DNA from: an uncultured Alphaproteobacteria bacterium
Lineage (GTDB): Bacteria; Pseudomonadota; Alphaproteobacteria; UBA3830; JAIRWN01
NCBI GenBank assembly: GCA_964369315.1
Contig: CAYJEJ010000001.1
Location: 4,091 to 68,090 of the forward strand
Direction of reading: 5' to 3'
Length of the DNA: 64,000 bases
Part shown: piece after piece, positions 16,926-57,501 of the stretch
How positions within the stretch are numbered: position 1 is the stretch's first letter
How the letters are laid out: each line of letters opens with the position of its first letter
Notes under the pieces: generated by a model
Seen by the model: the letters and a program-made list of their open reading frames with translations, nothing else
What the model was told of the DNA's origin: nothing
Database searches by the model: none
Program-made: the position numbers and the translations under genes

Positions 16926-17000
16926 GCGGGTGTAGCTCAGGGGTAGAGCACAACCTTGCCAAGGTTGGGGTCGAGGGTTCAAATCCCTTCGCCCGCTCCA
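16926..17000 (+). tRNA. tRNA-Gly (anticodon GCC)
   Basis: GCGGGTG...CGCCCGC acceptor stem, anticodon stem CAACC/GGTTG with loop TTGCCAA, T-loop GGTTCAAATCC, and encoded CCA. Confidence 0.93.
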
Positions 17001-17107
17001 AGATAGTTTTTTTTGTGTTTATCGCTATCGCCGATTTTTTCTTCAGCCATCTTTAATATCGGTTACTTCAGGATTTATTTGTTTCAAATATCAAGTTCTT
17101 GCTTTGA

Positions 17108-18277
17108 TTACAAACAGTCGGTTATCTCATTGATTATCGCATCAGTCTTGAGGTAATGCCTGTGGGGGATGATTAAGTGCTCACGCTGTTTTGCAAGGAA
17201 TTTTTGAGATAAGAGCCTGTTCAAGTTATTTGATGTAATAAACTTCCTGAATAGTTCTTCTCCGATGTTTGCCTCGAGAGTGTTTAAGTTCAAACCAAAC
17301 GAAGTTCTCAGCCCCATAATTACCATCTCTAATAATATATCTTGTTTTGCTAAGGGTGATTGGTGAAACGCTATCGGACAACTTTTCTGCCATTTATGAA
17401 TGTTATTAAAACGCTTGACCTCAAAAATTTGATTATCCAGCTTGAGCCGACTATGTGCACCAGCTCCAACGCCCAAATATTCATGATAAAACCAATATGC
17501 AATATTATGACGAGATTGGCAGTTTGTTTTTGCGAAATTTGAAATTTCATAATGGTTGAACCCAGCATTGGAGAGGCTGTCATCGATTATTTTAAATTGT
17601 TTAATTGTATGGGCTTCGTTTGGCATTTTGAGTTGACCAAGGTTGTGTGCCCGTCCAAAAGGAGTGCCCTTTTCTATTGACAGTTGATACGCAGACACAT
17701 GGTCGGGATTTAGATTAATCAATTGATGCAGGTCATTTTTTAAGTCCGCAATGGTTTGATGTGGGGTTGCAAAAATAATGTCAGTATTGATGTTTTGAAA
17801 GCCAACTTGTCGAGCTAGAAAAAACGTCTCTATTGCCTGTTTCATTGTGTGTTGCCGCCCTAAAAATGTCAGCATTTTGTCATTAAAAGACTGTATACCT
17901 ATCGATAGGCGATTTATTCCAGCTTGCAGATAATTCAAGAGGAGCCCTTTTGTTATGGTTGCGGGGTTGACCTCTAGCGTAATTTCTATTTTAGGATTGG
18001 AAAACGTCCAATGGTTTTTTATAAAACTGATGATGTCGAAAATAATTTCTGGTTTAATCAGCGATGGCGTCCCGCCCCCAAAATAGATGCTGCTCACCTT
18101 TCTATCATGTAAACGAGCATGTTCAAATATCAGCTCTTGTATTATGCTTTGATGCCAATTTTCTTGATTGGGGGTTGAACAGGCTATTGAATTGAACGCA
18201 CAATAATTGCACTTACTTAAGCAATATGGCCAATGTAAATAGATAGCTAAGTCGCGTTGGTTGATATTGGTCAACAA
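17108..18277 (-). CDS. hemW: radical SAM heme chaperone HemW (HemN-like, oxygen-independent coproporphyrinogen oxidase family)
   Basis: 389 aa. N-terminal YLHWPYCLSKCNYCAFNS (CxxxCxxC) followed by GGGTPS. Confidence 0.88.
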   Translation of the reverse strand: MLTNINQRDLAIYLHWPYCLSKCNYCAFNSIACSTPNQENWHQSIIQELIFEHARLHDRKVSSIYFGGGTPSLIKPEIIFDIISFIKNHWTFSNPKIEITLEVNPATITKGLLLNYLQAGINRLSIGIQSFNDKMLTFLGRQHTMKQAIETFFLARQVGFQNINTDIIFATPHQTIADLKNDLHQLINLNPDHVSAYQLSIEKGTPFGRAHNLGQLKMPNEAHTIKQFKIIDDSLSNAGFNHYEISNFAKTNCQSRHNIAYWFYHEYLGVGAGAHSRLKLDNQIFEVKRFNNIHKWQKSCPIAFHQSPLAKQDILLEMVIMGLRTSFGLNLNTLEANIGEELFRKFITSNNLNRLLSQKFLAKQREHLIIPHRHYLKTDAIINEITDCL

Positions 18278-50355: not shown

Positions 50356-51285
50356 TTAATTCGGTTTGTACTTATATCCATTATCTATTGTTGTGTTTGA
50401 GTTTAAGTGACGGATTACGTATTGCCCGCAGTTGCTACCGATGATGTTTTCTTCCAGATCGCCAATGCTGACTATCAAGTCATATCCATGTTTTTTTAAG
50501 TCATCAAACAGTCTGGAGCTTTGATTATCTTCAGATATCAATGATGAAATATTATTTTTAATGACGCTATGTGTGGGGTTGATGGGCGTGATTTTTATTA
50601 AAAATTTTTCTGGGTCAAAGAAGTTAATTAAGACGTTTGAATCAATCTCTGCATCTTTAGAAAGAGCAAAATTAAGCGTGATTTTTCTATCCCCCGCTCT
50701 ATAAAGCTTTTCACCGAAGTGTGCTATTTTAGTGAAGTCCCATTTTTTTATAGGCATAAGCCAATTTCTATAATTTTCATCAGTTGAGTGTATCGAAAAT
50801 TGCATTTGAAACGAACCTTGTTTCATTTCATGAAAAATCGTTAAAAGCTGGTCGAAAAAAACATCACATCCTGCGGGTGCAATGCTCGAAATTGACGGCA
50901 TATAAGAGCTTAGAGCATATTTTTTAGGGATATCTTTTATTACGTCTAATACGCTGTTATTGAGTGCAGGCTCTCCCATGCGGGAAAATTGTATTTTAAA
51001 TTTTTCTACAGGGACGCTTAACGTCGGATATCTAGACTTAATTAAATAATCGATTTGAAACATCATCTCATCGTAAGAGACCAAACCTTGATAAGTCCCT
51101 CCTGCGTCACAAAACCGACATTGTGCTGGGCACCCGTAAAGTGTCGAAATCATCAACACCCACTTTTGTTCCCTAGTATTAGGGGGTTGTATAGATTCCA
51201 CAAATTCGCACTGCTTACCCTCATTATTTTCGCCAATATAAACAGTGGCGATTTTATCGTTTCCTATTTTTGAAATTATTTTCAT
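50356..51285 (-). CDS. radical SAM enzyme, RlmN/Cfr-like core without the N-terminal domain
   Basis: 309 aa. Cluster motif GCPAQCRFCDAG (CxxxCxxC). MGEPALN resembles RlmN GMGEPL. FSIHSTDENYRNWLMPIKKW resembles RlmN SLHAPxxxxRxxxxPINKKY. IKITPINPT resembles NLIPFNP. C-terminal SNCGQY resembles AACGQL. Confidence 0.7.
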   Translation of the reverse strand: MKIISKIGNDKIATVYIGENNEGKQCEFVESIQPPNTREQKWVLMISTLYGCPAQCRFCDAGGTYQGLVSYDEMMFQIDYLIKSRYPTLSVPVEKFKIQFSRMGEPALNNSVLDVIKDIPKKYALSSYMPSISSIAPAGCDVFFDQLLTIFHEMKQGSFQMQFSIHSTDENYRNWLMPIKKWDFTKIAHFGEKLYRAGDRKITLNFALSKDAEIDSNVLINFFDPEKFLIKITPINPTHSVIKNNISSLISEDNQSSRLFDDLKKHGYDLIVSIGDLEENIIGSNCGQYVIRHLNSNTTIDNGYKYKPN

Positions 51286-52148
51286 AAATTACACTCTTTT
51301 TTCAGAAATTCGTTGATTTTCATTGCCGCCCTCACCCCATCGCCCACAGCGATTGAGCATTGCCTAAACAATCCATTTTTTACATCCCCAGCTTGTTGAT
51401 AGGCATCAAGATTTGGGTAAAGCTTTTTTAAGTTGTTCGAGAGAAATCCATCGTTTGGCTCACGTCCGATAGCAGCGATAATCATATCGAACTGGCGGGT
51501 TTCATCAGCGTTTCTGTGTATCATGATTTTATCCTCACAACTTGTAATTTGCGTTATGCGAAAATTGGCTAAATACTCTATGGAATCAAGGCTTATCGCC
51601 CTTTCATAAATAACCCCTAGGCTTTTGATTATATCTGTTCTATTTAAAATTGTAATATTGTTTTTTCGGGAAAGGTTTAATGCATAATCAAAGGCGGCGT
51701 CTCCAGCACCGATAATAGCAATATTTTTCCCTTGAATATTTTTTAGCGTCGCAATTTCATAATAAATCCTTGTCAATGCGTTATTATCAATCGGAAAGCC
51801 CAAGTTTTTCTTCGCTTTCGTGCCTGAAGCGACAATGAGAGATTTTGAAACATATGTGTGGTGCAAGGTGTTGATGTGAAAAAATGAATGAGAATAGTCT
51901 GCCAAAATTACAGTGTCTTTTATCACTGAAACGTCAGAGTTGATTGCAAAACTTTCGAGCTCATGAGCGAATTGTTCACCAGAAATTCCGTTATAATAGT
52001 TGGGATAATTCTCTATTAAATTTGCATTTCTTACCAAACCGCCAACGCAAGATTTCTCGATGATGGCAGACTTGAAACCATATCGTTTTATTTGACATGC
52101 TGCGGCTATACCAGCAGGTCCGCCACCGATTATTAGACAATCAAACAT
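51282..52148 (-). CDS. thioredoxin-reductase-like FAD/NAD(P) flavoprotein lacking the redox CxxC
   Basis: Start is MFDCLIIGGGPAGIAAA at 52148. Second dinucleotide motif IAIIGAGDAAFDYA and C-terminal AGDV...GDG. No CATC/CxxC is present where TrxR has it. ATGA overlap with the radical SAM gene. Confidence 0.75.
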   Translation of the reverse strand: MFDCLIIGGGPAGIAAACQIKRYGFKSAIIEKSCVGGLVRNANLIENYPNYYNGISGEQFAHELESFAINSDVSVIKDTVILADYSHSFFHINTLHHTYVSKSLIVASGTKAKKNLGFPIDNNALTRIYYEIATLKNIQGKNIAIIGAGDAAFDYALNLSRKNNITILNRTDIIKSLGVIYERAISLDSIEYLANFRITQITSCEDKIMIHRNADETRQFDMIIAAIGREPNDGFLSNNLKKLYPNLDAYQQAGDVKNGLFRQCSIAVGDGVRAAMKINEFLKKECNL

Positions 52149-52798
52149 TGTTCTTCCCGAGCATATATATCTTTCGCGACACAAACATATGCAAAACCAT
52201 GTGATAAATTTAAAACAGACGCCTCATGTAGCCTGAGGGTATATGTCGCGGTGGAATCGACTGGAAAAAAAACCTTATATCCACGCACGAATGCCGAGCG
52301 AACAGTCGTTTCGCAACATAAGTGTGTGGTGACACCTGTGACGACAACAGAAGAGGTGTTGTGTGTTTCTAGTGATTTTTCTAAATCCGTATTAAAAAAA
52401 GCGTCATATTGGGTTTTTGTTATGATAAATCCATCTGAGAGAGGTAATTTTGTGGAAATATTGCTGTATTGCACATTTAATATATCGTTCCACCAAACGC
52501 CCATCATTTTCGCATTATTATGGTTATTCATATGTTGAGTGAAAAAAATAGGACGCCTGTGTGACTTAAAAAAATCTATCAAATGCTTGATATTTTTTAC
52601 AATTGCTTCAGAAGATGGAACATGTGCATGAGAGCCCTCTTCGAGGAAATAATCCTGCATATCAACCACTAATAAAGCAGAAGAAAATATATCGAAATCA
52701 ACTGGGCGTATGTAAGGGGTATTTGAGATAATATTCCTTGCAACGGTTTCGATAGAATTACAACAAAAATATTTTTCTTTTATCGCCATGACTATCAA
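52133..52798 (-). CDS. isochorismatase-family (cysteine) hydrolase
   Basis: 221 aa. ALLVVDMQ (Asp), KTQYDAF (Lys) and VTGVTTHLCCETT (Cys) form the family catalytic triad. 16-nt overlap with the flavoprotein gene. Confidence 0.8.
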   Translation of the reverse strand: MIVMAIKEKYFCCNSIETVARNIISNTPYIRPVDFDIFSSALLVVDMQDYFLEEGSHAHVPSSEAIVKNIKHLIDFFKSHRRPIFFTQHMNNHNNAKMMGVWWNDILNVQYSNISTKLPLSDGFIITKTQYDAFFNTDLEKSLETHNTSSVVVTGVTTHLCCETTVRSAFVRGYKVFFPVDSTATYTLRLHEASVLNLSHGFAYVCVAKDIYAREEQCLIV

Positions 52799-52890
52799 AT
52801 GATAAGCCTTTAAAGAATTCTCATCAACTGAAATTTACTTCACCACATAATCAAAGTTACAGTCATTTTTTAAGCACTTAAATATTTGGT

Positions 52891-54585
52891 TTAATCGCCA
52901 GAAAAATGTATTGGTCTTGGGTCGTTGCTATAGGATTTAAATATTCTTTTATCAGCAGCGTCGATTGTGATGTTTTCATTCGGGACGATATGCACTCTTA
53001 AAAAAATCACCAGTTCGGTCACATCATTTGTCCTGCTGCGTCCCCTTGTAATTTCACTCAGGACAGGCATCTTGTCTGTTGCGGGGATGCCATAGTTTTT
53101 TCTGTCAGTATTTTCTTGCATTAATCCGCCCATAATAATCCCTTGTCCAGATTGGACTTTTAGTATGGAATCTATTTCACGCACCTCAACGACAGGCACT
53201 TCCGAGCAGATGCTGTTTAATATTGATGATAGCTTGGCGGTATCTGTTGTATTGTTTTGTGTCAGTTGGCTAGCCAATACGGATATTGCTGGGTCTTTTT
53301 TGACGCTTACAACCCTTGAAATGGTCGGTCTGATGGTTAAAATGACCTCGCCAGTTTCTAGGTTGATTGCAGGTTGTACTGCCATGATTAACCCTATTGG
53401 CACCGCTTGCATTTTGCTCTCTGCTGTGACGTAGTCTCTGGAGGTAGTTGCTGTCTCATTTTTAGTATTGTGCGTGAATTTTATTTGAAAAAATATTTCA
53501 TTTTTTGCAACCTTGAGCACGGCAGTTTGGTTGTTCATAACCGTTATTCTTGGGTTTGAAAGCGTTCTGACACTGCCGAAACCCTCGATAAATTTTAATA
53601 TACTAGAGATGTTTTTACTAGTATATCCGAGGGTATACAAGTTCGCATCACCAGAGAGGATGTTCACTGATGCGTCTTGGATGCTGGCTCCTGTTGGGAC
53701 GCCAATGATTTGGCTAGACATTCCCGATTGCCAGTCTATGCCGCTTTTAAATTTATCATTTAGCGTTACTTCAAAAATTTTTGCCTCTATTAACACCTGG
53801 GAGGTGGCGGTCATTTTCAGGGCGTTAATATATGTGCTAATTAGCCTATGCTGGCGTTCAGTTGCTGTTATCGACATCAACCCGCCTTGTTTATGAATTG
53901 ATACGGGTTTTTGTAGTCCATGTGGGTCATTGGCATTAATAATTGCATTAAGTGTGAACTCTAACTCCTGCCAAAAGTCGACATTCGTTTCACCTTTTAT
54001 GGTGTTATTGGAGCCGTTTATAGTCATATTATCATCTTCTTTTTTATTCTTGCTTTTAAACATATCTGGTGTGGTCGACAGCTCGCTGCTCCCATGCCTC
54101 GCCATTGATAAAAATTGCAAATTATAAAGCTTTAAATACGGTTTATCGGGCTCTATATGAACCGTAGAGCCCTTGATTTTATAGCGTAATTTACTCATCT
54201 CACATAAGTCCGCGATGACTTCAATAAATTGTCTATCTTTTGCATTAAACTCGACAGGAGATTTTATTTTGGATGACACCACAATACTGATGCCGAGCTG
54301 TTTTGCAATTTCTATCAACACTTTGTTGATTGGTGCGGATTCAGAAAAAGAAATGCTCACTTTTGACAAAAATTTTGGGCTTATTGGTTGTTCGTTGGGT
54401 AAGATGTTTTTTATTGGTTTATATTTTTCAGGAGGCAGATAATTTTTTGGCGGTTCGGTTATGGTTGCTAATACTTTTCTTTCAATGGCTTTTTTATCGA
54501 GCTCGGTTTTGCTCATATACTGAGAACAGCTTGCGAGGGATAAGATGATTAAACAAAAGGCGAACAAACTCAGGTATGTTTTCAT
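52891..54585 (-). CDS. secretin-family outer-membrane channel, lipoprotein type (MshL/PilQ/GspD-like)
   Basis: 564 aa. Lipobox LSLASC. Secretin core ...VLIEAKIFEVTLND...GIDW... and C-terminal ...GGLMQEN...GIPATDKMPVLSEI...ELVIFLRVHIV. Confidence 0.8.
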   Translation of the reverse strand: MKTYLSLFAFCLIILSLASCSQYMSKTELDKKAIERKVLATITEPPKNYLPPEKYKPIKNILPNEQPISPKFLSKVSISFSESAPINKVLIEIAKQLGISIVVSSKIKSPVEFNAKDRQFIEVIADLCEMSKLRYKIKGSTVHIEPDKPYLKLYNLQFLSMARHGSSELSTTPDMFKSKNKKEDDNMTINGSNNTIKGETNVDFWQELEFTLNAIINANDPHGLQKPVSIHKQGGLMSITATERQHRLISTYINALKMTATSQVLIEAKIFEVTLNDKFKSGIDWQSGMSSQIIGVPTGASIQDASVNILSGDANLYTLGYTSKNISSILKFIEGFGSVRTLSNPRITVMNNQTAVLKVAKNEIFFQIKFTHNTKNETATTSRDYVTAESKMQAVPIGLIMAVQPAINLETGEVILTIRPTISRVVSVKKDPAISVLASQLTQNNTTDTAKLSSILNSICSEVPVVEVREIDSILKVQSGQGIIMGGLMQENTDRKNYGIPATDKMPVLSEITRGRSRTNDVTELVIFLRVHIVPNENITIDAADKRIFKSYSNDPRPIHFSGD

Positions 54586-54666: not shown

Positions 54667-55455
54667 TTACCTATACAAACCCTTAATTCCTGTCAAAGTC
54701 AGAACACCTATAAAAAACAAAACTGCAATGAACAAACCTGATATAATAAAAGCAAGAGTTAACAGTTTAGAAGCCTTGTATTTATTGAACAACTCATACA
54801 GTTTATAAATAATATTATGAACAACAGAGTTTAGGCGTGAAAAAATTGATAATGATATAGTTATTAAAGGAATAAGAAGAAAGCCATACTTAAATTTAAC
54901 ATCGCCATAACTATAACTCTTAAACGTCATATAAAAAATGTTAAGGGCTAAAAGAAAAGCTGTAATAAACTTGGGAATATATTTTTTGTAGCAGAAATTA
55001 GGGTTGAAGTTTTTTCTAATCCAAGTTTTTAAAATATTTATGCTTAATATGATAGGCAATAAATGACCTATCATTACTCCAGCTACAACATTTATAGATA
55101 GTTTGTCGTTTGATATTGCCAAAATAAACCATCCCAACAATGATGCTGATACGAAAATAGGTATGGTTATAAGAAAAATATTAAGGTACTTATCACGTAA
55201 TTCAGGAGCCGATTTTAATAATATTTTTTTAATAAAACATGCAATTAAAAAAACTATAAAAATAACAAATAAAATAGAACAGAGCCCACATTCTTGTCGA
55301 CCAAAATCCCCCACAATCTGATTATTAGTCTGCCCACCTTCAGTTTGTATAGGGTCAACTTGTACTGGTTCATTTTTGTTTTCCTCGTTGATATTAGCGT
55401 TGTCTTCGGATTGAGACTCATTGCCAAAGATATAGTCATGGATATCAGAGTCCAC
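54667..55455 (-). CDS. hypothetical polytopic membrane protein (about 6 TM) with an acidic/Asn-rich N-terminus
   Basis: 262 aa. The GTG start overlaps the stop of the upstream 606-aa ORF by 11 nt. Its first ~37 codons lie inside direct repeat DR-L. Confidence 0.5.
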   Translation of the reverse strand: MDSDIHDYIFGNESQSEDNANINEENKNEPVQVDPIQTEGGQTNNQIVGDFGRQECGLCSILFVIFIVFLIACFIKKILLKSAPELRDKYLNIFLITIPIFVSASLLGWFILAISNDKLSINVVAGVMIGHLLPIILSINILKTWIRKNFNPNFCYKKYIPKFITAFLLALNIFYMTFKSYSYGDVKFKYGFLLIPLITISLSIFSRLNSVVHNIIYKLYELFNKYKASKLLTLAFIISGLFIAVLFFIGVLTLTGIKGLYR

Positions 55456-55513
55456 CGTATTCCACCACTTTGTTTGTTAAGAACTGTTTGTTTGGGTCTT
55501 TTAGGTAGACTTT
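55344..55513. repeat. direct repeat DR-L (170 bp)
   Basis: Aligns with 57236-57393. Near-identical blocks are tttgtatagggtcaacttg(t/c)actggttcattttt... and cgtattccaccac(t/a)(t/a)tgtttgttaagaactgtttgtttgggtctt. The middle is diverged with a 12-bp length difference. Confidence 0.9.
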
Positions 55514-57265
55514 TTGTTTAGTCGTTGGATGTATGTAGTAGAGATTATACCTCGATCCATTGAGGTGTTCGCCTACGACTGTGGCTTTTAGTGTTTCTTT
55601 CGATGACCCAATGTGTCCGCTCACGTCTACGTTTGCTTGTGATACTCCTTTGGTTTTGAAATACACGACGTTGTAGTCTGGTGTTGTGCAATCTTTGATG
55701 TTGATGTTTTGTTTTGTCCAGTCTTTAATTCTATCTGGTTTGAAGACTAGGTCTGGTTGATTTTTCGTGCACGTGTTTATAGCCAAAGCCGTTATGTTCT
55801 TCACGTACTCAGGTGAGAGGTTGCCTGTTACCTCAGGAGCCATGAACATTAGGTGTCCATCATTTAGAGCGGAAGTGGAGCTCATGCGTTGGACTTCAGC
55901 CTTTGCGAATGTTTCAGCATCTGATGAGCTTAGCCCTAGCCTCATACCTTCTGCTAACTTATTCCTCAAGAACACGGACGCTTTATGTATGTCATTGCCT
56001 CCGACCTCTACTGATTGCCAAAACCAAAAGTTTTGGTCGAACATTGCCTTAGCCTTGCTTTCAGCGTCAAACTTCTTGATGGTTTCTCGTTGGTCGTCAG
56101 TCAAGCCTGTTCTGTTTTTCTCGAAGATGATTTGTCTGTATCGTTTAATGTTTTCGTATGTATGGGATTTTGGGTCGTTGGGGTTGAACGATGCCTCGAC
56201 CATTGTTGCGAATGCGTTATAGCTTTCGGTGTTGATGGACGAGATGTTCTCAGCTCTTAATCCTTGAGACACTCTGAACGCCCCGACAGCCTCGACCACT
56301 TCAGTTGCCCCGCCATACTTGAAAGCGTTCTCAATCTTCTTGCAGTATTTGTTGAGGTTGGTGTGATACTTAGCACCTTGGATTGCGTACACATTGGCAG
56401 TTGGCTCGCCGTTCTGACCTGACAAGATAGACAACTCATACTCGAATGCTTTGTTTAGTTGTTCATTAGTTAGTCCTGTTTCTGTGTCGGTCTCAGCATG
56501 TTTGCACACTAGTGCGTAATTGTCTTGAGCTTTGAGCGTAGCCTTATCCTTTTGAACCAGTCTAGCCATGAGCTTATTTCTCTGGACTTCCGAGAGGTAC
56601 TGGCTTCCTACGATGTCTTGTTCAGTCAGAGTTCCTTTGACGAGTTGTATCTTAAGTTCAGTCTCTTCGATGTTGGCTCTATTCTTGAGGTCAGCCTCTG
56701 CAACTTTCTCGGCTTGTCTCTCTCTTTTCTCGAGGGACTTGATGCTAGAAGCAACGAACCTCTGAAGGCTTTGACGTTTCTCGGCGGACAGATTGCTAGT
56801 ATGTTCTTTGCTATTAAGCAGAGCCATTGCGTTGTAAGGGTCTTTGGAGACATGTCCGAGAATAACGTTCGCGTCGAAGTCTTCAGTAAGCTTCTTCTCG
56901 AACTTGTTGTAGTCACTAGCAGGCAAGATGCCTTTGCAGTTCTCGATGGTTTGTTTGTAGTTGACCCATATTGCGTCTTTGTTTTCAGGTGTATCTCGCA
57001 AGATGTTTAGCATTTGACCGGCTTGTTGCAGTGCGGACTGTCTGGTGTTTGCTACCCGCATAGCGTTTTCCTCCGAGAAGGATTTGTTAGCCCAGTCTTG
57101 ATGGAGTTTCATGGAGAACGTATCTAGTGCCTTAGACACATTGTCGGTGGAAGCGTTTTTCTTTAAGTCGTCTTTATGTTTACCGACTTGACCGGTCATG
57201 AACTGCATGTACCCTTCACCGGACGGGTTAGACTGTTTGTATAGGGTCAACTTGCACTGGTTCAT
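55445..57265 (-). CDS. hypothetical ~590-606-aa protein with distinct codon usage (possibly phage- or HGT-derived)
   Basis: Long uninterrupted ORF. Alternative start MQFMTGQ at 57208 is preceded by GAAGGG. No signal peptide. Helical Lys/Glu-rich N-terminal half and beta-rich C-terminus. No motif recognised. Confidence 0.55.
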   Translation of the reverse strand: MNQCKLTLYKQSNPSGEGYMQFMTGQVGKHKDDLKKNASTDNVSKALDTFSMKLHQDWANKSFSEENAMRVANTRQSALQQAGQMLNILRDTPENKDAIWVNYKQTIENCKGILPASDYNKFEKKLTEDFDANVILGHVSKDPYNAMALLNSKEHTSNLSAEKRQSLQRFVASSIKSLEKRERQAEKVAEADLKNRANIEETELKIQLVKGTLTEQDIVGSQYLSEVQRNKLMARLVQKDKATLKAQDNYALVCKHAETDTETGLTNEQLNKAFEYELSILSGQNGEPTANVYAIQGAKYHTNLNKYCKKIENAFKYGGATEVVEAVGAFRVSQGLRAENISSINTESYNAFATMVEASFNPNDPKSHTYENIKRYRQIIFEKNRTGLTDDQRETIKKFDAESKAKAMFDQNFWFWQSVEVGGNDIHKASVFLRNKLAEGMRLGLSSSDAETFAKAEVQRMSSTSALNDGHLMFMAPEVTGNLSPEYVKNITALAINTCTKNQPDLVFKPDRIKDWTKQNINIKDCTTPDYNVVYFKTKGVSQANVDVSGHIGSSKETLKATVVGEHLNGSRYNLYYIHPTTKQKVYLKDPNKQFLTNKVVEYGGL

Positions 57266-57335
57266 TTTTCTTTTCCTCGTTGATGTTAGCGTTGTCCTCG
57301 GATTGAAGCAAAATGTCAGAGATATTATATCCCAT
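57228..57335 (-). pseudogene. truncated second copy of the 5' end of the membrane-protein gene
   Basis: Encodes MGYNISDILLQSEDNANINEEKKNEPVQVDPIQTV*, compared with MDSDIHDYIFGNESQSEDNANINEENKNEPVQVDPIQTEGGQ... at 55455. Homology ends exactly where DR-R ends. Confidence 0.6.
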
Positions 57336-57393
57336 CGTATTCCACCACTATGTTTGTTAAGAACTGTTTGTTTGGGTCTTTGAGGTAGACTTT
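57236..57393. repeat. direct repeat DR-R (158 bp)
   Basis: Partner of DR-L, 1,892 bp away. Together they bracket the body of the 606-aa ORF. Confidence 0.9.
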
Positions 57394-57501
57394 ATGAAAA
57401 GCTCCCGCAATAAGAGGCAAGTTAAATAAATTTATAGTGATTAAAGCAGAAAGATATTTTAGAAATAATGAGAGGTGTTTTTTGCAAAATTTATAATTCA
57501 T
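57325..57501 (-). CDS. 58-aa ORF whose last 22 codons duplicate the C-terminus of the 606-aa ORF
   Basis: Encodes MNYKFCKKHLSLFLKYLSALITINLFNLPLIAGAFH-KVYLKDPNKQFLTNIVVEYDGI*. The 606-aa ORF ends ...KVYLKDPNKQFLTNKVVEYGGL*. Below the ORF-track cutoff, and coding status is uncertain. Confidence 0.35.
   Translation of the reverse strand: MNYKFCKKHLSLFLKYLSALITINLFNLPLIAGAFHKVYLKDPNKQFLTNIVVEYDGI

Follow-up and report, generated by a model that had tools for sequence, protein, structure and literature searches.

A truncated RlmN/Cfr-fold radical SAM protein encoded in a coupled trio with a thioredoxin reductase-like flavoprotein and a cysteine hydrolase in bacteria and archaea

Introduction

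What might an enzyme built on the fold of the RNA methylases RlmN and Cfr do when it carries neither their RNA-binding domain nor their second essential cysteine (Cys), and is encoded together with a flavoprotein and a hydrolase? This question is raised by a 64,000-nucleotide (nt) stretch of DNA from an uncultured Alphaproteobacteria bacterium (contig CAYJEJ010000001.1 of assembly GCA_964369315.1, positions 4,091 to 68,090; hereafter the window). Three intact open reading frames (ORFs) were read from its minus strand at 52133-52798, 51282-52148 and 50356-51285, encoding a hydrolase, a thioredoxin reductase (TrxR)-like flavoprotein and a radical S-adenosylmethionine (SAM) protein, respectively. 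A preliminary description of this locus, made from the sequence itself, had regarded the three genes as a dedicated unit and proposed that the flavoprotein would act as an electron donor, that the hydrolase would prepare or release a substrate and that the radical SAM protein would perform chemistry different from that of canonical RlmN.

In RlmN, Cys355 is methylated with one molecule of SAM, and a second SAM abstracts a hydrogen atom from the resulting methyl-Cys; the methylene radical adds to C2 of adenine, and the adduct is resolved by Cys118. The reaction consumes two reduced ferredoxins (EC 2.1.1.192). To our knowledge, two RNA methylases are the only enzymes for which this class A chemistry, with its methyl-Cys, its radical addition to an sp2 carbon and its resolving second Cys, has been described.

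A radical SAM family with the RlmN/Cfr fold and a single conserved C-terminal loop Cys

The radical SAM protein is poorly covered by sequence libraries. It has no Pfam match at E<=0.01, a single-sequence search of the PDB gave nothing, and its matches to the RlmN/Cfr models of NCBIfam lie far under the curated cut-offs: TIGR00048 scored 30.2 bits (cut-off 290), TIGR04432 35.2 (550) and NF000424 37.4 (530). Its ancestry emerges from profile and fold comparisons. Positions 2-296 of the family profile align to residues 67-348 of Cfr (PDB 9p0p) with E=2.5e-11, and RlmN is matched at approximately 3e-6. The AlphaFold2 (AF2) model has a predicted local distance difference test (pLDDT) score of 92.6, and its best Foldseek matches are RlmN and Cfr structures (E ~1e-12, TMq 0.60-0.69, 14-17% identity), with TYW1 and viperin-like enzymes following as far weaker next-best folds. 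The family comprises 3464 homologue clusters, nearly all of ~311 residues and ~55% identical across phyla, from Melainabacteria, Cloacimonadota, Zixibacteria, Acidobacteriota, Thermoplasmata and other lineages.

Two features define the putative active site. The first is the CxxxCxxC motif GCPAQCRFCDAG (Cys52, Cys56 and Cys59) expected to bind the [4Fe-4S] cluster, and the second is Cys286, located in the C-terminal sequence IGSNCGQ, the counterpart of Cys355 in RlmN and Cys338 in Cfr, which carry the methyl group; in the profile alignment, SNCGQ falls on AACGQ of Cfr. Both the motif and Cys286 are invariant in 120 homologues. The RlmN/Cfr hallmarks, the cluster motif and the C-terminal SNCGQY that the preliminary description had recognized by eye are genuine. 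The same description had pointed to a short N-terminus and to a Met seven residues before the cluster, and these features are equally real. The stretch before the cluster is only 51 residues long and is modelled as four beta strands, and an Ile/Met column of the family, represented here by Met45, lies opposite Cys105 of Cfr (Cys118 of RlmN). The residue at this -7 position is Met in the window protein and Ile, Met, Val, Thr or Asn in its relatives; a Cys was found there in 0 of 120 close homologues and 0 of 66 wider representatives. As judged from the aligned sequences, the absence of the N-terminal domain and of the second Cys holds across the whole family. The suggested comparison of Cys equivalents, run here as a profile alignment to Cfr, thus returned a matched C-terminal Cys and no upstream counterpart.

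The simplest explanation, that the protein is the orthologous RlmN of this organism, was rejected on the basis of scores of 30-37 bits against cut-offs of 290-550, the missing domain, the missing Cys118 equivalent and the occurrence of the family in archaea. The canonical RlmN/Cfr family has been reported to be absent from Archaea except Nitrosopumilus, in a study that mentions merely "a small additional subfamily of unknown function" (Kaminska et al., PMC2836569). No canonical rlmN gene was found within the 64-kb window.

A flavoprotein derived from thioredoxin reductase without its disulfide

The flavoprotein, which carries the nucleotide-binding motifs GGGPAG and GAGDAA, matches Pyr_redox_2 and Pyr_redox_3 (E ~1e-24) and scores 131 bits against the TrxB model TIGR01292, whose cut-off is 343. 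When the protein was aligned by BLASTP with a genuine TrxB encoded in one of the loci (L005), the redox-active CAIC of the latter fell opposite Tyr130-Glu-Ile-Ala133. At this position, the family consensus reads YEIY, and the flavoprotein family has no conserved Cys, in agreement with the earlier statement that the middle gene is TrxR-like and devoid of CxxC. The flavoprotein has 3448 relatives at E<=1e-10, and invariant features of its subfamily include GxGPxG, ENY, GxGD.xFDY, two Asn residues, GR, GD and RQ.

The preliminary description had further likened the protein to TrxR-type ferredoxin/flavodoxin-NADP+ reductases (FNRs), and this resemblance did not hold up. Among relatives of known structure, genuine low-molecular-mass TrxRs reach 60-90 bits, whereas TrxR-type FNRs reach 30-42 bits in partial alignments. 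The AF2 model (pLDDT 94.3), in the NADPH-facing flavin-reducing (FR) state, has a template modelling (TM) score of 0.87 to FR-state TrxR (PDB 5mh4), and all of its top 50 PDB fold matches by Foldseek are TrxR or AhpF. It ends in a single helix (residues 264-286), without the C-terminal subdomain that stacks on flavin adenine dinucleotide (FAD) in FNRs. The flavoprotein is derived from low-molecular-mass TrxR with loss of the disulfide, and does not belong to the FNR branch.

A cysteine hydrolase of the isochorismatase family

The third protein had been called an isochorismatase-like hydrolase. Its membership of the family stands (PF00857, 129.6 bits, cut-off 27), and it is not a true isochorismatase. 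An Asp45-Lys127-Cys161 triad (numbering of the 221-residue ORF) is invariant in 48 homologues, with the predicted nucleophile in the motif HLCC. Although EntB is the best solved relative (73 bits), the first Cys of HLCC lies opposite the Gly of its HIGC motif, and aligns with NVCC (NVCCETT) of the cysteine hydrolase 3irv. True isochorismatases such as EntB and PhzD have Gly at the position of the Cys nucleophile. Because the Asp-Lys-Cys triad is kept and a Cys stands where EntB and PhzD have Gly, the protein is a cysteine hydrolase rather than an EntB-type isochorismatase. Comparison with curated NCBIfam models yielded RutB (53 bits, cut-off 378) and BiuH (53, cut-off 370) as best matches, followed by PncA (36, cut-off 174); YcaC was also far below its threshold.

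Conservation, translational coupling and natural fusions

The distribution and arrangement of the genes are evidence that these proteins belong together. In a scan of one genome per species, the radical SAM gene was detected in at least 579 species genomes of many bacterial and archaeal phyla. Bacterial carriers include Thermotogota, WOR-3, KSB1, Krumholzibacteriota, Anaerolineae, Bacteroidales, Saprospiraceae and Chlorobiaceae; archaeal carriers include Methanogenium, Methanomassiliicoccaceae and Thermoplasmata. Among 82 non-redundant loci whose gene neighbourhoods were evaluated, 80 have the flavoprotein gene immediately before the radical SAM gene, and the two remaining contigs end ~100 nt upstream of the radical SAM gene. 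Of the 75 loci that could be assessed for the hydrolase gene, 61 have it upstream of the flavoprotein gene. Beyond these, surroundings vary from genome to genome (ftsZ, mutS, clpX, dnaA, rpoD and others), and no further neighbour, including any transporter or regulator, is conserved across phyla in the 82 loci; a glyoxalase-like gene occurs near the trio in 2 loci only.

The genes are also closely coupled. At the flavoprotein/radical SAM junction, 58 of 80 loci show an overlap (median spacing -4 nt, the 4-nt overlap being modal) and 70 of 80 a spacing of no more than 30 nt; at the hydrolase/flavoprotein junction, 41 of 59 loci show an overlap and 51 of 59 an overlap or a gap of <=30 nt. Pairwise distances of the three proteins correlate (r = 0.69-0.80 over 48 loci), and mean pairwise identity is 57% among the radical SAM proteins, 48% among the hydrolases and 42% among the flavoproteins. 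When 1.84 billion representative sequences were searched with a profile, 163 matches were obtained at E<=1e-30, among them natural fusions of two kinds: flavoprotein::radical SAM (P0250, P0272 and P0291) and radical SAM::hydrolase (P0276, P0279, P0295 and P0311). Apparent long fusions in the high-GC loci L019, L046, L026 and L068 were discarded as ORF-calling artefacts, so that the real fusions come solely from this search.

From these fusions it is evident that the three activities belong together, and likely that the flavoprotein and the radical SAM protein associate physically. Since the hydrolase gene is missing from ~19% of assessable loci, the flavoprotein/radical SAM pair is regarded as the core. 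Co-location across phyla, translational coupling, co-inheritance and occasional fusion agree with the earlier proposal of a dedicated unit, and the opposite outcome, that the three genes are never co-located in other genomes, is refuted by the neighbourhood counts.

Several individual loci deserve mention. The closest relative of the window radical SAM protein (61% identity; L086:4059-6794) is encoded with a flavoprotein gene and no hydrolase gene; this pair lies behind an Exo_endo_phos gene, with dnaG-rpoD further upstream. In two loci (L001:8957-9364 and L085:2797-3228), one of which is among the closest relatives of the window trio, a hemerythrin gene follows the radical SAM gene directly; none is present in the window.

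The locus and other features of the window

The coordinates of the trio and of its diagnostic residues are compiled in Table 1. Both overlaps noted earlier, one of 16 nt and one of the ATGA type, were confirmed. For the hydrolase, initiation at the ATG (MAIKEKYF) is more likely than at the upstream TTG, because homologues begin with MKExYFT. A weak sigma-70-like sequence in the gap of ~100 nt upstream of the operon is regarded as a candidate promoter only, because such sites are no commoner in this region than in shuffled sequence. No terminator-like site was found in the window between the trio and the downstream genes xseB, yggT and folD. The GC content of the trio (0.35-0.40) is like that of its flanks, so that composition gives no sign of recent horizontal transfer. 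As a possible clue to the substrate, riboswitches were sought, and none was found in the window or in 13 related loci.

Table 1. Features of the three-gene locus in the window (positions refer to the whole stretch; amino acids, aa)
Feature	Position	Strand	Basis or remark
Hydrolase gene (PF00857 cysteine hydrolase)	52133..52789	-	218 aa from ATG at 52789; frame open up to TTG at 52798
Predicted nucleophilic Cys161 codon of the hydrolase (221-aa ORF numbering)	52316..52318	-	Sequence read; column 100% Cys
Hydrolase/flavoprotein gene overlap, 16 nt	52133..52148	-	Hydrolase TAA (52135-52133) inside the flavoprotein gene, whose ATG is at 52148
Flavoprotein gene (CxxC-less TrxR-like FAD/NAD(P)H protein, 288 aa)	51282..52148	-	Profile, fold, motifs
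Tyr130-Glu-Ile-Ala133 at the CxxC position of genuine TrxR	51750..51761	-	BLASTP against genuine TrxB of L005
Flavoprotein/radical SAM stop-start overlap (ATGA)	51282..51285	-	Read from sequence
Radical SAM gene (truncated RlmN/Cfr-fold enzyme, 309 aa)	50356..51285	-	Profile, fold, motifs
Met45, position of RlmN Cys118/Cfr Cys105	51151..51153	-	Profile alignment opposite Cfr Cys105
CxxxCxxC motif, [4Fe-4S] cluster site	51109..51132	-	Invariant in 120 homologues
Cys286, counterpart of RlmN Cys355/Cfr Cys338	50428..50430	-	Invariant in 120 homologues; aligns with Cfr AACGQ
Candidate sigma-70-like promoter, weak	52799..52827	-	9/12 consensus positions; upstream of the operon

Elsewhere in the window, a direct repeat of ~175 nt (88% identical, spacing ~1.89 kb) is found at 55343-55516 and 57235-57396. 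The repeat takes in the 5' ends of two neighbouring ORFs on the minus strand, at 54667-55455 and 55445-57265, which adjoin a secretin gene (52891-54585) and lack convincing Pfam matches. A second radical SAM ORF on the minus strand, at approximately 17000-18260, contains the HemW/HemN-like motif YLHWPYCLSKCNYCAF and is unrelated to the trio.

Wider relatives of the radical SAM protein

The best library match of the window radical SAM protein, far above RlmN and Cfr, is the phage family phrog_24834 (110 bits, E=2e-31, residues 38-290). Truncated RlmN-like radical SAM proteins of this sister family occur in 538 viral contigs, where they stand alone (examples L098-L177; P0351 and P0396): no gene family is present in more than 17 of 80 such loci, and neither a flavoprotein nor a hydrolase gene was found as a neighbour. 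Conversely, the radical SAM family of the trio was not found in viral contigs. Structures in BFVD match the protein at a TMq of 0.73 and represent short COG0820-like proteins, such as B3FJU2 of Pseudomonas phage 201phi2-1. Of 66 full-length representatives of the wider clade, 54 retain CG[QNKM] as a C-terminal motif. On one phage-like contig (L089:19-4658), a sister-family gene lies between an NAPRTase-family gene and PTH2, NUDIX, NAD kinase and phosphoribosyl pyrophosphate (PRPP)-synthetase-like genes, a set that resembles phage gene sets for NAD reconstitution.

A small branch of distant relatives is fused to transport and nucleosidase domains. In P0362, the radical SAM domain is joined to a QueT-like membrane domain (39.8 bits, cut-off 33.7) and a nucleosidase for 5'-methylthioadenosine/S-adenosylhomocysteine (MTA/SAH; 224 bits, cut-off 169), and P0378 is fused likewise. 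Together with P0339 (586 aa), P0362 (814 aa) and P0378 (820 aa) hint at an uptake-coupled processing of queuosine-type precursors with removal of 5'-deoxyadenosine or SAH. This branch has 8 relatives only, in phage-like contexts, and its nearest stand-alone member resides on a megaphage-like contig.

Proposed function and alternative explanations

The trio is proposed to constitute one self-contained enzyme module, the obligatory core of which would be a stoichiometric pair of radical SAM protein and flavoprotein, probably organized as a physical complex. The reading tentatively preferred here is that this pair performs Cys286-mediated radical chemistry on a free substrate with electrons supplied through NAD(P)H and FAD, and that the hydrolase acts on the same molecule. 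The radical SAM protein retains the complete SAM/[4Fe-4S] site of RlmN/Cfr together with the mobile C-terminal Cys. Because the RNA-binding N-terminal domain and the second Cys have been lost, its substrate is most likely small and free, probably an N-heteroaromatic or similar metabolite that reacts at an sp2 carbon. Cys286 may serve as a methyl or methylene carrier, as in class A methylases, or as a relay of hydrogen atoms or electrons in a radical reaction. The flavoprotein would take a hydride from NAD(P)H onto FAD and pass on the reducing equivalents that the reaction consumes, whether by reducing the cluster, by re-reducing or resolving thiyl or adduct species at Cys286, or by both, and could in this way substitute for the missing Cys. 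The hydrolase, through its Asp-Lys-Cys triad, would act either ahead of the radical step or following it, cutting an amide-type bond of the substrate; roughly one fifth of lineages may do without it or encode it at another site. The fold, the motifs, the conservation, the coupling and the fusions are shown by the analysis; the complex, the direction in which electrons flow, methyl transfer and the kind of substrate are inferred.

A bolder version of this proposal specifies that the external CxxC-less flavoprotein assumes the redox and resolving role of the second Cys, and that the RlmN-fold enzyme methylates or otherwise functionalizes a free N-heteroaromatic metabolite such as a purine or pyridine (nicotinamide-type) compound, on which the amidohydrolase also acts. 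This version is unlikely as formulated; if true, it would represent a novel type of class A radical SAM system and the first small-molecule pathway based on the RlmN/Cfr mechanism, and one that is widespread in anaerobic bacteria and archaea.

Several considerations weigh against the preferred reading. The proposed function is anchored by no characterized orthologue, ligand or experiment. A dedicated reductase is unusual, as most radical SAM enzymes use the general pool of flavodoxin and ferredoxin, and direct electron transfer from FAD to the cluster is thermodynamically uphill. Without an equivalent of Cys118, the radical SAM protein may be no methyltransferase at all. Its mean pairwise identity of ~57% between phyla would also fit a conserved macromolecular substrate; the hydrolase gene is missing from 14 of 75 assessable loci; and the net charge is near neutral, neither it nor the isoelectric point discriminating between substrate types.

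The alternative that survives best, although it too is on the unlikely side, is that the radical SAM protein transfers no methyl groups and is a radical lyase, isomerase or reductase whose substrate is a modified nucleobase or resembles a cofactor, with the module forming a salvage or repair pathway. Cys286 would then donate a hydrogen atom to quench a product radical, the flavoprotein would re-reduce the thiyl or reduce the product, and the hydrolase would remove an amide or amidine. The absence of the resolving Cys and of the RNA-binding domain in every member is in keeping with such a role, as are the unrelated housekeeping surroundings of the module, often seen for salvage or repair genes, and the fusion of distant relatives to QueT-like and MTA/SAH nucleosidase domains. 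The queuine lyase QueL is a radical SAM enzyme whose gene adjoins that of QueT (PMC11130926). No QueT or QueK gene adjoins the trio in the 82 loci, and the QueL link is treated as an unverified lead because the QueT-fused branch has so few members and phage-like surroundings. A further point against this alternative is that the full set of RlmN/Cfr motifs around the C-terminal Cys is retained, as would be expected of a methyl carrier.

Whether the protein could still be an adenine methyltransferase for tRNA or rRNA, with its partners replacing the N-terminal domain in RNA recognition and in the resolution of intermediates, must also be considered. The sole characterized relatives by fold and profile are RlmN and Cfr, the very high conservation across phyla would fit a conserved RNA target, and members of the family are labelled 23S rRNA (adenine2503-C2)-methyltransferase by JGI. 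However, scores fall roughly 8-15x under the curated cut-offs, and the protein has lost two elements that RlmN/Cfr cannot do without, the N-terminal domain and the equivalent of Cys118. A cysteine amidohydrolase has no obvious role in RNA methylation, the family occurs in archaea that lack the RlmN/Cfr system (PMC2836569), and the net charge is neutral. Taken together, these points render RNA methylation improbable, and action on a free small substrate is preferred.

A contribution to corrinoid-dependent methyl transfer, either by processing the substrate or product of an MttB-family enzyme or by reactivating corrinoid proteins with an electron from the flavoprotein and a methyl group from SAM, is very improbable. 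It is suggested by 9 loci from genomes resembling Krumholzibacteriota or Latescibacterota: there, the hydrolase gene is translationally coupled to a gene for MttB (PF06253, up to 311 bits), at a distance of -3 to 56 nt. Ahead of MttB, the scanned loci encode a B12-binding corrinoid protein and an S-methyl_trans protein. This linkage has persisted through considerable divergence, since the radical SAM proteins of those loci are only 55-88% identical. Nevertheless, only 9 of 82 loci show it, apparently of one broad lineage, neither the window nor any other phylum has it, and the corrinoid activases known to us (RamA type) are unrelated to the trio proteins.

As an observation in its own right, the MttB-linked loci (L008, L014, L023, L024, L034, L040, L048, L049 and L068; e.g., L014:141-3968) place the trio at the tail of a corrinoid methyl-transfer operon where corrinoid genes are present, and the genes for the corrinoid protein and the S-methyl_trans protein are Pfam-confirmed in L014 and L049. 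Finally, an anti-phage defence system was rejected, given that none of the three proteins has a PADLOC match and that no viral copies of the trio family were found.

Novelty and significance

The components of the trio are familiar folds, and the three-gene system itself is undescribed. None of the three proteins is captured as a specific family by a Pfam, NCBIfam or PADLOC model, and no description of a gene combination of this radical SAM protein, a TrxR-like protein and an isochorismatase-family protein was found in the literature searched, in line with the earlier remark that no pathway with this combination had been described. Source annotations name the proteins 'RlmN', 'thioredoxin reductase' or 'radical SAM protein', so that an unannotated three-gene unit is mislabelled as 'RlmN' and 'thioredoxin reductase' by current pipelines.

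A large family that keeps the fold and the first Cys of the RNA methylases, yet has no second Cys or RNA-binding domain and is locked to a TrxR-derived flavoprotein, makes two questions askable: can the RlmN mechanism operate without a resolving Cys, and what is the role of the TrxR scaffold once its disulfide is gone? The module suggests that some metabolic or repair function is widespread among uncultured anaerobes, and the nearest relatives of its radical SAM protein form a large phage family.

Comparison with known systems

Relative to RlmN and Cfr (TIGR00048, TIGR04432; PDB 3rfa, 5hr7, 9p0p and 6fz6), the radical SAM protein of the trio shares the fold, the CxxxCxxC site, equivalents of the MGEP, S(I/L)H..D and (T/I)P.NP motifs, and the Cys of the C-terminal loop aligning with Cfr Cys338 and RlmN Cys355. 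It differs in having neither the N-terminal helical RNA-binding domain of ~65 residues nor the second essential Cys (RlmN Cys118, Cfr Cys105), and the family is always paired with the flavoprotein and is present in several archaeal lineages. The phage family phrog_24834 has the same truncated architecture, likewise without Cys at -7 and with a C-terminal CG motif, but its ~55 N-terminal residues are different and its C-terminal sequence is TCGN instead of SNCGQ.

With low-molecular-mass TrxR (TrxB, TIGR01292; PDB 5mh4 and 2q7v), the flavoprotein shares the two-domain FAD/NAD(P)H fold and the motifs GxGxxG, ENYPGFP, GxGxxA and GD..(Y/F)RQ, whereas it lacks the CxxC, has an invariant FDY of its own after GAGDAA, and is partnered with the radical SAM protein rather than thioredoxin. 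TrxR-type FNRs (PDB 3ab1, 3lzw and 2zbw) are also CxxC-less proteins of the TrxR fold, and they use NAD(P)H to reduce an iron-sulfur or flavin partner, the very role proposed for the flavoprotein; nevertheless, they are more distant from it than genuine TrxRs, with none among the top 50 fold matches. The hydrolase shares the Asp-Lys-Cys triad with the PF00857 cysteine hydrolases (RutB, biuret hydrolase, PncA and CSHase) and a VCCETT-like motif with 3irv, is closest to EntB in its N-terminal lid and overall layout, and has conserved motifs of its own (sHA..Ps, WW and the N-terminal MKExYF).

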